In this document: piece by piece, positions 13,593 through 33,469 of the stretch | Layout of the letters: the number at the start of each line of letters is the position of its first letter | Numbering within the stretch: the stretch's first letter is position 1 | From: a virus | Taxonomy: Duplodnaviria; Caudoviricetes | Length of the DNA stretch: 64,000 nucleotides | IMG/VR virus record: IMGVR_UViG_3300017721_001026 | Location: 1-64,000 of that record | Strand: one strand, 5' to 3' | The notes under the pieces: generated by a model | Told to the model about the DNA's origin: nothing | The model's input: only the letters and a program-made list of their open reading frames with translations | Database searches by the model: none | Made by a program: the position numbers and the translations under genes

Positions 13593-14984
13593 TCACATGA
13601 GGTTCTTAACAGTTACACGTCTGTAGTAACGGTTAGAGTTGGTGGTTAGTCCACCTAGACCCTGGTTGGTTCCTTCTGCGAATGGGTTAGCAACTAGACC
13701 ATAACGGGTCTTGAAGCCAATCTTGGGCTGGAAGGTGTTTTCTCCAACTGCACGTACCATCTGGAGAGGTACATATGGGCAGTAGAATAGACCTGCGTCA
13801 TAAGGTGAAGAACCCTTATAACCTGCAACGTAATACTGGTTAGCAGCATTGTTTGCAGAATATGGATCGATGTATACACGGAACTTACCGAGTAGAGTAC
13901 CAGCAAAGGTGTTGCCAGTGTCATCTACGTTAAGGTTTGCGTTGAGTGCTGGGGTGTAGTCTAGAACACCAGCCATGGCTAGAGCAGAAGCAACGTCTGC
14001 GGAGCACATGATGATGTTGCCCTTTCCTCTACGAGTTCTTTGTGCAATCTGGTTCGCATCTCTTTCGATTTGGAACAGAAGACCCTTGAACTTCTCAACA
14101 GACCAACGACCGTTGGAGTCGATATCTAGATCGAACTCACCAGCAGTTGCGGTGTTGACGGTAGCACCTTGTTCAGCAACCTTATAGATGGTTCTGATGA
14201 CTTCACGGTTGATCTCAGCAAGAATCTCAGTAGAGAGAATGTTTGCGAGTTCAGCCTCAGCATTAAGACCGTGAATTGCCTTAATGTCTTGTGCTAGTTC
14301 TAGGGAGTATTCTGCCTTGAGTGCTCTGGACTTTGCAGTCACAGTAACTTTCTCAATGCTGAATGCCATCTCGTTGAACTGATCAGAGACGCCGAGATTC
14401 TCAGCATCGTCAGTTCTCATGCCCTGACCAACGTTATAATCTAGCTCGTTAGCAGATGCGGTTGGGTTGAGGACGGAAGGATTGCTACCAGACTGTGCGG
14501 TAGTACCCATACCAGCAGCAACACCAGTCATTCCAGTGGTGTTGTTGAATCCTGAATCCTGTCCAGAGAAAGCAGTATCTGCTTCGTTGAACATTGCTTC
14601 AGTTCCGCTCTGGTTGGTGTAGCGGGAACGCATTGCGAAGATGAGTCCAGTAGGACCACTCATTGGTTGAACACCTGCGAGGTCATATGCGACCAAGTTA
14701 GGCATTGAACGTCTAATTAGTGAAATTAGAACGGGGTCGAAACCTGCGGTAGGACCACCAGCAGCGGATCCACCTTGGAATCCGTCAGAACCAACTGCGT
14801 TGGTAGGTGCTTCTGCGAGGAATGAACCTGAGTTGTTAAAAGAGTTTTGCTCTCTTAGAAATTTTTCTTGGTTTTCTAGCAGGACTGCGGTCACTGCTCT
14901 CTTATGGGAATCTTGAATATTATCAAGACCCTGATGATCGAGAACTGGTGCCCACTTCTCCTGCAATTGCTCGGAATTGAACAT
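13593..14984 (-). CDS. g23: Major capsid protein (T4 gp23)
   Basis: LISLIRRSMPNL.AYD..GVQPM.GPTGLIFAMR, AKSRALKAEYS.ELAQD, YCPYVPL, FQPKIGFKTRYG. Confidence 0.99.
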   Translation of the reverse strand: MFNSEQLQEKWAPVLDHQGLDNIQDSHKRAVTAVLLENQEKFLREQNSFNNSGSFLAEAPTNAVGSDGFQGGSAAGGPTAGFDPVLISLIRRSMPNLVAYDLAGVQPMSGPTGLIFAMRSRYTNQSGTEAMFNEADTAFSGQDSGFNNTTGMTGVAAGMGTTAQSGSNPSVLNPTASANELDYNVGQGMRTDDAENLGVSDQFNEMAFSIEKVTVTAKSRALKAEYSLELAQDIKAIHGLNAEAELANILSTEILAEINREVIRTIYKVAEQGATVNTATAGEFDLDIDSNGRWSVEKFKGLLFQIERDANQIAQRTRRGKGNIIMCSADVASALAMAGVLDYTPALNANLNVDDTGNTFAGTLLGKFRVYIDPYSANNAANQYYVAGYKGSSPYDAGLFYCPYVPLQMVRAVGENTFQPKIGFKTRYGLVANPFAEGTNQGLGGLTTNSNRYYRRVTVKNLM

Positions 14985-16254: not shown

Positions 16255-16905
16255 TTATAGTGAATTTAAAAAGTCGTTGAATAGACTTAACTTATGCTCA
16301 TCAAGTGCTTTTTGATCAACTAAGGTGTTGATTCTACGTGCAGTTTTTGCTGCATTTTGTTCACGAAGAATTCCTCCTTCCCAAACCCATTCTTTTCCTT
16401 CCATAATTCCAGAAACAAAAGCATCAGGTGCAGAAGGATCTGCAACAATATCAGCAGCAGTTGCCAACATGAAGTCTTCACCAACTTCAGAATAACCTTC
16501 TTTAGTTGGACGAAGTGAACCAATACCACGAGAAGAAACTCCGAGCATCACACCTTCTTTAAGAAGAGACTCGGCAATTTTACCCATTGGTGTAGATAAA
16601 ATTTGTGCTTTACCAATAAAGTCATTTCCCTTTTGCTCAAGAGAAACGATCTTATGAGAAACACGATCAAGATTAATAGTTGGACCATCTGGATGACCCA
16701 GTTCACCTAGAGCACGACCTTTAGTAATATGCTCATCAGTATATCTCTTCACCTCACGTTCCATTACGTTACGACGATATACTCTGCCGTTACGATTTTG
16801 CTGTTCGGTTTGGAGAAAAGGTCCTTGAATATAAAGAGTTTTCTTACCGTTTCTTGTTTCGGTAATAACTTCTACCTTTTCTATCTCTTCTCTAATTAGT
16901 TTCAT
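16255..16905 (-). CDS. g21: Prohead protease (T4 gp21)
   Basis: MKLIRE, NRNGRVY, GELGHP, GVSSRG.GS, DIVADPSAPDAFV. Confidence 0.97.
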   Translation of the reverse strand: MKLIREEIEKVEVITETRNGKKTLYIQGPFLQTEQQNRNGRVYRRNVMEREVKRYTDEHITKGRALGELGHPDGPTINLDRVSHKIVSLEQKGNDFIGKAQILSTPMGKIAESLLKEGVMLGVSSRGIGSLRPTKEGYSEVGEDFMLATAADIVADPSAPDAFVSGIMEGKEWVWEGGILREQNAAKTARRINTLVDQKALDEHKLSLFNDFLNSL

Positions 16906-22439: not shown

Positions 22440-22661
22440 CTACCAATCTGGATATTCCCATCGATTATCACAATTCTTATTACTCAAAATTCTTTTTATC
22501 GTACACGACTTACATTCATATGAATATGAAGATGCTACTGGTCCTCTATCCTTACGAGTTCTATAAAATTCACTAACCAAATTTTTAGATTGTCCACATA
22601 CTCTACATTCTCTATCATATAATAACAGATGCCCTAGTTTTATTTGCTCATCAAAATCCAT
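22440..22661 (-). CDS. Small zinc-finger-like protein between g17 and g18
   Basis: CRVC...EFY...YECKSC; coupled to the g17 stop. Confidence 0.75.
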   Translation of the reverse strand: MDFDEQIKLGHLLLYDRECRVCGQSKNLVSEFYRTRKDRGPVASSYSYECKSCTIKRILSNKNCDNRWEYPDW

Positions 22662-24313
22662 TAATTATAATCCCACATATATGACATATCACCATATTCA
22701 CCAACCGATGCATTAGACCATCGATCACCCTGAGCATCAACAAAACTAGTATCTTCTAATCCATCATTCAAGAATCCAAATGGTGCCATATCTTGTTCTA
22801 TCTGATTTTTTTGATCTTCATATAATCTTTTTCTCACATCTTGATCGGTAAGTTCCTTAAAGTAGTCTTGTGCTACTAACCATGCATAGATGACAAGACA
22901 CATTGCAAGGTCATCATTACAACCCTCTTCTGCCTCAAATGAATTATGTTTTGAAATAAAAGTTGTTAGTTCCGCAATAATCTCATAGTCATTGAAAATT
23001 AATTTGTCTTCTTCAATTAGTGCTTTAAGGTTAAGTGATCCAACTTTCTTTACAGTCTTGGACATCTTAACACCCAACTGTGTTTTTTTACCAGAGAATC
23101 CTTGACCCACAATCTGACCAGCACGTCCTCTCATAGAACACATAAGAACATTTTGATATTCTAGATCATATTGTAAAATAGATGCTACTTGATCACCAAC
23201 ATCATTTACCTCACATAAAATATATGCACCATTATAATTTCTTGCCACTTCATAGATGATACTGGGGAACAGCATCGGTTTGATCTCATTATTCCGATAC
23301 TTCGCCACAATCCTATGAGGAAACTCTGTAATGTCTGCAACAACAAATGCAGAGTAGTCATTACCAACTCCTCGGGCAACGTCTACCGTCATTACATAAT
23401 CATGGTTTTCTTTTGCTGGTTCATAGACATCCAAACCTGCGTTTTTATGCATTGGTGAATCATACACCAACGTTCTCAGTTTACTTGGAGCAATGAGTGT
23501 ATCAACAGATCCTAAGAACTCGCACTCAAACTCAACCTTAAATTGTGCTTCTGATGTATTGGCAATGGTTTGTTCTTTCCACTTAGAATCTCTTCCAGGA
23601 ACTTCAGACCAGTGAACATCTGTATGAATATACTCATTCTTCCCTCTTTCGGCATCATGCCACAAACGGTAGAAATGATTCATACCATGTGGAGTAGATA
23701 CAATAATTACCTTGGTACTTTTACCAGAAGTAATAGTAGGATAAACAGAGGCAAAGAACGAGTCAGCAACATGGTTCGGGACGAATGCGAACTCGTCGAG
23801 AAAGAGGATGTTAAAAGACATACCTCGGACAGCACTCGCAGACGTAGATGCTGCCAGTATTTTACTCCCATTCTCTAACTCCAAACTACCTTTGTTCCAG
23901 GATATAATACCCTGTTGCATCCACCGTGGCAAGTTCTCATAAGCAGTTTGTAACCTATCGAGAAGTTCTCGGGCAGTTGCTGCTTTGTTTGCCAGGATAC
24001 CAATATTTACACTGTCATTAAATACCGCATAATGAAGTAGATAAGACACACACGTCGTAGACTTACCAGTCTGTCGTGGCATCTTACAAATGTTAAATCG
24101 ATTCTCATGAAATCTATTAACTAACTTTTCCTGAAAGTCATACAACTTGAATGGTTGAAGACCATGATCAAGTGTTACGATCTTTACATAATTTTTTGCA
24201 AAATATACGGGATCTTCTTTACACTTAATGAACTCCTCAATCTGTTCTTTCGTGAACTCTTGAGGTGTATTTGCTTTTTTTAGATTAGGATTACCAAGAT
24301 ATACGTCACTCAT
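22661..24313 (-). CDS. g17: Terminase large subunit (T4 gp17)
   Basis: YLGNPNLK, PRQTGKST, LDEFAF, STP.G.NHFY, DVARG...DYSAF, DDL.M. Confidence 0.99.
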   Translation of the reverse strand: MSDVYLGNPNLKKANTPQEFTKEQIEEFIKCKEDPVYFAKNYVKIVTLDHGLQPFKLYDFQEKLVNRFHENRFNICKMPRQTGKSTTCVSYLLHYAVFNDSVNIGILANKAATARELLDRLQTAYENLPRWMQQGIISWNKGSLELENGSKILAASTSASAVRGMSFNILFLDEFAFVPNHVADSFFASVYPTITSGKSTKVIIVSTPHGMNHFYRLWHDAERGKNEYIHTDVHWSEVPGRDSKWKEQTIANTSEAQFKVEFECEFLGSVDTLIAPSKLRTLVYDSPMHKNAGLDVYEPAKENHDYVMTVDVARGVGNDYSAFVVADITEFPHRIVAKYRNNEIKPMLFPSIIYEVARNYNGAYILCEVNDVGDQVASILQYDLEYQNVLMCSMRGRAGQIVGQGFSGKKTQLGVKMSKTVKKVGSLNLKALIEEDKLIFNDYEIIAELTTFISKHNSFEAEEGCNDDLAMCLVIYAWLVAQDYFKELTDQDVRKRLYEDQKNQIEQDMAPFGFLNDGLEDTSFVDAQGDRWSNASVGEYGDMSYMWDYN

Positions 24314-24322
24314 ACACTAACC

Positions 24323-25708
24323 TCAACAATTCCAAGCTCTTAATGATTTGTTTATTCTGCTATCTGGATCTCTAGCAGTCTTGGCAGAAGTTAGTTTTGC
24401 CTTCATACCTTTCATTCTTGCACAGAATGATGCTCTTCTCTTATTACCCTTCTTCTTAGAAGGTGCTTTCAGATCAGAACCAGGATTCTCTCTTTCATAA
24501 GACTTACGTCCTTTTTCATTGAGACCACCTTCTTTATTCTTACCAGACTTCTTGGTCCATGCAGCACCTTCAGAAACTTGAAGGAATTGCTCACCAGGTT
24601 TAACATCTGCAATTTCCATATATCTTACTCTACCACCAGGATAGACCTTTTGGACTTCAAGTTCAACTTCCTGTCTGGTAGGTCTCTTTGCTTGTGGGAA
24701 GAACATCTTGATGGAATATCCTTTACCTCTCCATGTAACCATGACGGATAAAATGTTACCAGTTTTTGCAGGAACTCTTACTGCCTCTTCAATTGCTACA
24801 CCTTCACATTCACAGGGATCACAACTGCAGTATGGACAAACCTCTTTTGGTTCCACTTCTTCTTTTCTTGTCTTTTTTTTCTTAACACAGTTTGGATATC
24901 TCTTTCCAAACATAGTCTTCATACCCTTCTTCTCATAACCTTTCCAACATGCTTCACCAATCTCTGTTTCTTCCTTCTTTGTGCTATTGCCCCAATTAGC
25001 AGCACCTTTCTTACGACACTTAACTAATGCACCTGATGCATATGCAGAAGGCCATACGGAATAACGAGACTTGACCTTATGATAGCAAGCATCTTTTGTG
25101 CCACTACCCTTTCCTTTTTTATCTTTTCCTTCTGTCATTGCTTCAATATCATAAGTTTCATAACTCTCAATATCGGGTGCGTTTGATTTCATTGGTTCCT
25201 TCTCGATGATGTCGTTAATTACTGCGAATGGTTCACCGTATGCATCAGTAATTTCTACTTCTTCTTTTTTATCTGTTGCAACATAAGTTGGTTTAGCAGC
25301 ACCTGATTTACTCTGTTGACCAGGATCTGCTGCCTTCTTTCTTCTAGCAGCAGAAAGTCTTTCTTTCTTGCTCATACTAGAACGTTTTGATGAAGAAACA
25401 CACTTTGGAGTTCCTTCACCTGGTTTATCACTAGCACATGTGCCACCAGTGACTACATTGACCCAACCACCTTTACCATCTTTAGACTTGGATCCTTTAA
25501 ACCACTTACGAAGACTTCCCTCACTCATCCCGCCACCACTTTCACCACCATTACCTTCAGAAGACTCACCATTTCCATTATTTTTATCAGTCTCTTCATC
25601 ATCTTTTTCAATCACTCCACCACGACCCACATGCCAACCGACAGGAATTTTCTTACATTTCTTATCAGTATAACACCAGTAATATCCTGGTTTGCAGGTC
25701 TTTGCCAT
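24323..25708 (-). CDS. Modular Lys/Cys-rich hypothetical protein (DUF5872- and DUF6321-like modules), probably an internal head protein
   Basis: Basic modules (WPSAYASG.LVK; GGLN.KGR...RRASFCARM...SLR.W.C) separated by acidic linkers; CTAAATA late box at 25731-25737. Confidence 0.75.
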   Translation of the reverse strand: MAKTCKPGYYWCYTDKKCKKIPVGWHVGRGGVIEKDDEETDKNNGNGESSEGNGGESGGGMSEGSLRKWFKGSKSKDGKGGWVNVVTGGTCASDKPGEGTPKCVSSSKRSSMSKKERLSAARRKKAADPGQQSKSGAAKPTYVATDKKEEVEITDAYGEPFAVINDIIEKEPMKSNAPDIESYETYDIEAMTEGKDKKGKGSGTKDACYHKVKSRYSVWPSAYASGALVKCRKKGAANWGNSTKKEETEIGEACWKGYEKKGMKTMFGKRYPNCVKKKKTRKEEVEPKEVCPYCSCDPCECEGVAIEEAVRVPAKTGNILSVMVTWRGKGYSIKMFFPQAKRPTRQEVELEVQKVYPGGRVRYMEIADVKPGEQFLQVSEGAAWTKKSGKNKEGGLNEKGRKSYERENPGSDLKAPSKKKGNKRRASFCARMKGMKAKLTSAKTARDPDSRINKSLRAWNC

Positions 25709-33016: not shown

Positions 33017-33469
33017 CTATTTATTCAAGGTTTCATTTTGTATATTATCAAATGCATTTTTATTTAAAAGTTTTGATAATTCTGCAGTTGATCCCACAAA
33101 TAATGCATTATTGACAGTTGTTGGAGACTGTTTTTTATTGTCTTGATCCAACTCATGCATTTTTTTCTGAAGATCTAATAATTTATCAGTAGCATCAGAA
33201 ACATTTTTGATCAAATGACCAACAACTTCATATGCTCTTGGTGTCTCTGTTTCTTGTGCTAACTCAAGTATTCCGTTTATTGCTTCTTGACCCTTTTCAA
33301 TGATGGAATATAAATTACCTCTAGTATATTCATAATCATTTGTTACATCATCTTTTTTTAGAGGTTTTTCTTTTTTGGGTTCTTCAACAATTTCCGAAGA
33401 TGCTTCTACTTCTACAATAGGTGCTTCTTCAATATTAAATGTTTCATTTAGATCTTCAAATTTTGCCAT
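33017..33469 (-). CDS. g16: Terminase small subunit (T4 gp16)
   Basis: DYEY.R.NL...IEKG..A......A....PRAYEV; NNALFVGST.EL. Confidence 0.93.
   Translation of the reverse strand: MAKFEDLNETFNIEEAPIVEVEASSEIVEEPKKEKPLKKDDVTNDYEYTRGNLYSIIEKGQEAINGILELAQETETPRAYEVVGHLIKNVSDATDKLLDLQKKMHELDQDNKKQSPTTVNNALFVGSTAELSKLLNKNAFDNIQNETLNK

Follow-up and report, generated by a model that had tools for sequence, protein, structure and literature searches.

The T4-like cyanomyovirus whose 64-kb sequence we analysed (64,000 nucleotides, in the following termed the window) encodes on its minus strand a protein of 461 amino acids (ORF 24323..25708; ATG start, pI 9.5, 50.8 kDa) that raises a particular question: does a chain of small basic modules, joined by acidic linkers that end in a motif of the prohead-protease type, serve as one protein or as the precursor of several? 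Database assignments say little about this. The ORF is a member of phrog_727, which matches residues 50-461 (E 2.7e-125) and has no known function, and of T4-GC119; Pfam recognises the last module alone, as DUF6321 (PF19846; residues 389-459, profile positions 1-72 of 72), with 79.9 bits against a gathering threshold of 28.5. The entries for PF19846, PHROG 727 and T4-GC119 (Sullivan et al. 2010) give neither function nor processing. The closest isolate is Synechococcus phage S-SCSM1 (84% DNA identity over the region of the ORF), and no paralogue of the protein was present in the phage's own record, which is ~67% complete.

The layout put forward in the original prediction, six basic and mostly Cys-containing modules alternating with acidic linkers, proved to be real (Table 1): the modules carry net charges of +4 to +17 and the linkers of -2 to -10, with Cys pairs or triples present in five of the six modules. 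In an alignment with 120 relatives the modules are conserved at more than 90%, whereas linker length and sequence are free to vary. The N-terminal module M0 is first in the protein whenever it is present and ends in VIE/K (the slash marks a predicted or known cut, here and below); its residues C5, C12 and C18 are found in all 103 aligned copies and H26 in 74 of them. M1 was detected in cyanomyovirus records only (85). Linker L3 contains a cluster of five Cys residues, and relatives exhibit a different Cys/His insert at this position (C-x-H-x-KG-x-x-CP-V/I-HG-x-x-x-CP): these sequences suggest that the clusters are small metal-binding inserts.

Table 1. Features of the 461-residue protein and related genes, in window coordinates; the last column gives the family instances of each module that are preceded by hydrophobic-x-Glu.
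Feature	Residues	Window position	Strand	Description	Motif before module
M0	1 to ~34-37	25607..25708	minus	N-terminal Cys-rich beta-hairpin; net +4, 3 Cys	
Linker L0	35-63	25520..25606	minus	acidic, Gly/Asn-rich, hypervariable; ends MSE/G (E63)	
M1	64-146	25271..25519	minus	basic, +13, Cys pair	137/145
Linker L1	147-193	25130..25270	minus	net -10; contains IIE/K (E169); ends ...SYETYDIEAMTE/G (E193)	
M2	194-241	24986..25129	minus	basic helical, +10, Cys pair	151/171
Linker L2	242-252	24953..24985	minus	ends IGE/A (E252)	
M3	253-279	24872..24952	minus	27-residue basic beta-hairpin, +9, bounded by two Cys	159/164
Linker L3	280-308	24785..24871	minus	acidic; five-Cys cluster CPYCSCDPCEC; ends IEE/A (E308)	
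Cys cluster of L3	292-302	24803-24835		CPYCSCDPCEC	
M4	309-380	24569..24784	minus	beta-beta-alpha-beta, pLDDT ~80, net +5, no Cys; ends ...EQFLQVSE/G (E380)	173/175
M5	381-461	24326..24568	minus	DUF6321; most basic module, +17, 2 Cys	133/215 (Glu at most 5 residues from module start in 215/215)
LNE/K in M5	396-398	24515-24523		E398	
Large terminase gene		22661-24313		461-residue ORF lies directly upstream	
gp16		33017-33469		461-residue ORF lies within the gp16-gp17 interval, after three fibre-like genes	
gp21 homologue		16255..16905	minus	prohead core serine protease (Peptidase_S77); PF03420, 122.5 bits	
Codon of E58, major capsid protein	58	14811..14813	minus	LAE/A; aligned with T4 gp23 maturation site	
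73-residue ORF		22440-22661	minus	between gp18 and gp17; two CxxC pairs	

The proposed sites MSE/G, MTE/G (E193), IGE/A, IEE/A and VSE/G all lie where they had been placed originally, and these five are the only matches to [LIVM]xE[AG] in the protein, each located exactly at a module border (an example of a stretch spanning a joint is ...FLQVSEGAAWTK). Five matches compare with 1.07 expected from 5000 composition shuffles (P=0.0036). The best conserved junction is IEE/A at the end of L3, with the Glu retained in 120 of 121 sequences and the Ala in 110 of 121; position P3 at the junctions is often Val or Met, as against the Leu/Ile of the T4 rule. Within M5, a further LNE/K is invariant in 121/121 full-length relatives, and the same position reads LTA, LNA or MTK in the free-standing DUF6321 proteins of other phage types; it could be a sixth cut site, which would yield an 18-residue peptide, or else a lineage-specific trait.

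Profiles of the six modules run over 241 family members revealed ~30 different orders and subsets, and a hydrophobic-x-Glu ending 1-2 residues before the module start is kept whatever precedes it, in 62-99% of instances depending on the module (Table 1). Across linker positions the motif ends at 2.9%, so that ~6% would be expected by chance at a junction, although the family members are related and the junction counts are hence not independent events. The joint between M4 and M5 is less regular than the others (His at P3 in 57/215). Conservation of the x-x-E sites at the module borders is thus retained through shuffling. Many family members (P0023, P0025, P0036, P0079, P0120 and others) also exhibit a DUF192/UPF0127 domain (PF02643) after M1 or M0, and these inserted domains are likewise bracketed by hydrophobic-x-Glu.

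Given that every joint carries a motif of the head protease, the chain probably enters the capsid and is cleaved to separate DNA-associated peptides: on comparative sequence grounds, we consider the protein to be, with reasonable probability, a precursor of small basic head-internal proteins and thereby the polyprotein counterpart of the T4 internal proteins. The same features could also belong to a flexible multi-domain protein, part of the virion or bound to DNA, that stays uncleaved and in which hydrophobic-x-Glu acts as a structural cap or marks sites of cassette recombination. The motif is indeed short and the linkers are rich in Glu (13.9%), as such an uncleaved protein would allow; that five unrelated modules have the motif in common is, however, less easily reconciled with it.

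The comparison with free-standing copies bears on this directly. Individual modules do occur as separate small genes in phages without T4-like genes nearby (short family members that start at internal Met codons or derive from cut contigs were not counted). Free-standing DUF6321 proteins of 76-105 amino acids, all without a Glu leader, are encoded by the T7-like cyanopodoviruses P-SCSP1c (right after the capsid gene) and S-TIP28, by the pelagiphages HTVC024P and HTVC023P and by a Planktothrix phage; in HTVC024P the gene lies among small non-structural genes, indicating that the module is not bound to the capsid by necessity. We compared the context of 53 loci from genome assemblies with flanks of ~6 kb: the Glu motif precedes M5 at every one of the ~13 loci that have T4-like neighbours (gp13-gp20), whereas ~20 short forms with no T4-like gene within ~6 kb start with M-A-K-SPAW, M-SAAW and similar sequences, within three residues of the predicted cut VSE/GAAW. 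Two of the short-form loci adjoin a Mu gpT-like capsid gene or an SU10-type portal gene. Next to head genes of Roseobacter phage CRP-901, an M1-like module and M2 each have a small ORF of their own; that for M2, which is unannotated, has 54 residues and starts with MPAKKPKRDACY. The two basic ORFs of this phage (L019:1474-1870) are found, in a stretch that lacks annotation, between a 456-residue head-region gene and an HVA1-family gene. Elsewhere, therefore, the beads exist as proteins in their own right, and cleavage as predicted would restore the N-termini that they naturally have. Furthermore, since free-standing copies without T4-like neighbours lack the motif, it is not part of the folds: the junction motif tracks the T4-like genomic context, which weighs against an uncleaved protein.

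A second line of comparison concerns the leaders. DUF6321 proteins that occur as single modules in T4-like contigs start with MKTYNDFITE/V (directly upstream of gp17), MKNFAQYIEE/D or MKTFKQYLEE/K, and where relatives have several modules, M5 is often preceded by a joint that reads KTYEQFVAE/A, TYKEFMTE/A or SFSQFMQIAE/V. In the T4 record, IPII and IPIII start with MKTYQEFIAE/A and IPI with MKTFKEFTS...ITE/A; the first ten residues of IPIII are an experimentally defined capsid-targeting sequence (CTS; PMC9026906). Relatives thus exhibit leaders resembling the T4 CTS at the very place where the joint is found in our protein, again in conflict with the uncleaved alternative. What favours that alternative is that the 461-residue protein is itself devoid of an N-terminal CTS (~10 residues of the MKTYQEFIAE type): it starts with MAKTCKPGYYWC, i.e. 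with M0, and exhibits only weak internal look-alikes of a CTS (YETYDIEAMTE/G and EQFLQVSE/G). In another T4-like contig (L027:3-1142), the same gp16-gp17 hot spot encodes a basic protein in which a CTS-like joint, ESFSDFLNE/G, precedes an S-adenosylmethionine lyase domain (PF23780; 29.6 bits, the cutoff being 28). From its domain composition, this protein may be an anti-restriction enzyme that reaches the host in the same way.

Structure prediction was consistent with separate units. The AlphaFold model of the 461-residue protein (70 relatives; mean pLDDT 54.7, pTM 0.25) resembles beads on a string rather than a single globular fold: the confident units are the M0 hairpins, part of M1, the M3 hairpin, M4 and the M5 helices, while every linker and joint scores below 50. 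A second model covering residues 305-461 confirmed the confidence of M4 and again gave a disordered joint between M4 and M5. Joints predicted to be disordered are a further point against hydrophobic-x-Glu as a structural cap in an uncleaved chain, which, taking the arguments together, we regard as rather unlikely. Searches with the models did not assign a fold: Foldseek with the whole model returned nothing from the PDB at E <= 0.001, and VIA-align of the M4-M5 model against 48,161 chains gave a best Z of 4.5. A resemblance of M4 to the fold of T7 Gp2 and RNA polymerase epsilon (YkzG) reached a Foldseek E of 0.28-1.2 and a VIA Z of 4.1, short of the level at which a real match can be told from a common arrangement; T7 Gp2, RNA polymerase epsilon and phi29 p6 probably share with M4 no more than a widespread small arrangement. 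A search of the PDB with the protein sequence also gave no match, and hence the modules are absent from solved virion structures.

The phage encodes the machinery that processing would require. The gp21 homologue is the presumed processing enzyme, based on its family assignment, and the major capsid protein provides a reference for its specificity: the sequence FLAE/A at E58 aligns column for column with FLTE/A of T4 gp23, whose mature chain begins after E65. The original prediction had named this site correctly, and from its exact alignment with the known T4 cut a T4-like cleavage rule for the protease of the window can fairly be inferred. A T4-type scaffold is encoded by the phage as well. 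In another possible role, the protein would be a gp21 substrate that, like gp22, gp67 and gp68, belongs to the prohead core or takes part in assembly, and its fragments would mostly be expelled before DNA packaging and would not be cargo. The density of [LIVM]xE[AG] in the 461-residue protein does equal that of the gp22 scaffold and the gp21 protease of the same phage, and the acidic linkers are like scaffold-derived peptides. The modules, however, are strongly basic where the scaffold is acidic.

Data from virions also bear on this point. The orthologue from S-SCSM1 (78% identity) is annotated as a virion protein, and the study of this phage used mass spectrometry on CsCl-purified particles to identify virion proteins. 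The S-SM1 homologue SSM1_115 (T4-GC119) was listed as a "structural protein", with 13 peptide counts compared to 18 for the portal, whilst the Syn9 homologue was not detected in virions (Sullivan et al. 2010). Relatives are therefore found in the virions of two phages, by shotgun mass spectrometry that carries no information on size, and with neither fragment sizes nor peptide termini given in either study: such detection is also compatible with an uncleaved chain. The supplementary data published for S-SCSM1 and S-CREM2 contained no peptide-level evidence. Among the 16 cyanomyovirus genomes compared by Sullivan et al., the T4-GC119 family is present in 15 and missing from S-PM2. Whilst the Syn9 result would suit a core component whose fragments leave the head, the occurrence in mature virions would not, and neither would the absence from S-PM2 or the variation in copy number and length, which are unlike an essential core part; we thus judge such a role to be improbable.

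The position of the gene was also considered. The gp16-gp17 interval of cyanomyoviruses is a hypervariable hot spot (PMC3037559). In S-SCSM1, two extra genes (14238-15310 of L001), for a 106-residue hypothetical protein and a 249-residue virion protein, lie between the orthologue and the terminase gene and are absent from the window. In S-SM1, the 178-residue protein SSM1_114 (T4-GC403; L012:1999-2535) is encoded just upstream of the homologue and has no counterpart in the window; its 60 peptide counts in virions are third after gp23 and gp19 among the matches listed. The 73-residue ORF between gp18 and gp17 of the window is annotated as endonuclease VII in relatives and gave no Pfam match at E <= 0.01.

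Concerning transcription, the late box that had been claimed to precede the gene is only partly borne out: a box TATAAATC is present there with a 7/8 match, yet it is weak and ends 1 nt before the ATG. The late core ATAAATA is depleted in the window (14 occurrences compared to 26.6 expected), with 13 of the 14 on the coding strand (range 11242-60870), and several of these boxes are found ~10-40 nt upstream of late-gene start codons; the window scan detected none in front of the 461-residue ORF. As true late boxes lie ~10-40 nt away and TATAAATC only 1 nt from the ATG, a functional late promoter directly upstream of the ORF was rejected. More likely, the gene and the fibre genes are transcribed jointly from the box at 33018-33024.

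This neighbourhood allows one more explanation, in which the protein is not a head protein at all: it could be associated with the tail or fibres, in keeping with a gene that directly follows three fibre-like genes, or be a sticky co-purifier that never meets the prohead protease, given that very basic proteins adhere to DNA and particles. In either case one would struggle to account for a junction motif that tracks the T4-like genomic context, for relatives with CTS-like leaders and for free-standing copies that adjoin capsid or portal genes in other phage types, and we consider this explanation to be improbable as well.

Returning to the reading as a precursor of head-internal proteins, the comparative evidence (a motif that withstands shuffling, free-standing forms without leader, CTS-like leaders and relatives in virions) supports well the polyprotein and the prohead-protease cleavage that were proposed originally, and none of the three observations named beforehand as counter-evidence was made. 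The precursor would be made late, most likely as part of one transcript with the upstream fibre genes, and would enter the prohead, where the gp21-type protease would cut after Glu at the hydrophobic-x-Glu joints and release peptides of ~6-14 kDa (M0, M1, M2, M3, M4 and M5). The acidic linkers may mask the charge of the basic modules before cleavage and, as spacers, be lost thereafter or act as counter-ions. Once released, the cationic modules would remain associated with the packaged DNA and, at infection, exit the capsid along with it. By analogy, the most likely job of the modules is to bind or neutralise DNA, and more specific roles inside the host are possible; the proposal of DNA-binding or anti-defence effectors is based on charge and analogy. 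A more far-reaching and, in our view, rather doubtful extension is that the gp16-gp17 hot spot constitutes an exchangeable arsenal in which each bead is an injected effector with its own host target (such as a defence system, the nucleoid or RNA polymerase), the polyprotein-plus-protease format letting phages swap, duplicate and co-deliver cassettes. In this view, relatives with a DUF192 domain, or with an S-adenosylmethionine lyase domain behind a CTS-like joint, hint that enzymes may ride the same system.

T4-like cyanophages rank among the most numerous marine viruses, and to our knowledge no internal head proteins have been assigned to them: if the precursor reading is true, their missing head cargo would be identified. 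In public data, clustering at 50% identity gives more than 2400 clusters for the DUF6321 module, and in the literature that we searched we found neither a description of such a polyprotein system nor a paper on DUF6321. The polyprotein strategy would be unusual for tailed phages and would explain part of a known hypervariable region, while the grammar of leader plus joint could help to recognise proteins packaged by phages that have not been cultured.

Comparison with known systems helps to separate what is established from what would be new. T4 IPI, IPII, IPIII and Alt are likewise small basic proteins of a T4-type phage, with hydrophobic-x-Glu directly before the mature part (predicted in our case) and a Peptidase_S77 encoded; in addition, relatives of M5 have leaders almost identical to MKTYQEFIAE and relatives of the protein occur in virions. 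Unlike the T4 proteins, the six modules form a single precursor in which acidic spacers separate them, and they are shuffled among phages; the precursor lacks the N-terminal CTS, and there is no sequence homology to IPI, IPII or IPIII (a Pfam scan at E up to 1 gave DUF6321 and one chance match). The antimicrobial peptide polyproteins of insects and plants, which are secreted eukaryotic chains of cationic peptides with anionic spacers cut by cellular proteases, resemble our protein in alternating cationic Cys-paired mini-peptides with charge-balancing acidic spacers and in using a fixed short protease motif, which is an analogy of design only. In the jumbo phages phiKZ, 201phi2-1 and SPN3US, a gp21-related protease processes inner-body and ejection proteins after Glu at multiple positions, and sometimes more than one fragment is kept (PMC9026906). 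Several after-Glu sites per chain are also predicted in the 461-residue protein, but the jumbo-phage proteins are large, are cut at a small residue-x-Glu motif, exhibit no interchangeable basic mini-modules of 30-80 residues and are not homologous to it. Thus, the targeting leader, the cut after Glu and basic internal proteins are already known from T4 and several cuts per chain from jumbo phages, whilst a chain of mini-modules that can be exchanged and are set apart by acidic spacers, with DUF6321 and the modules that accompany it as likely cargo, would be new.
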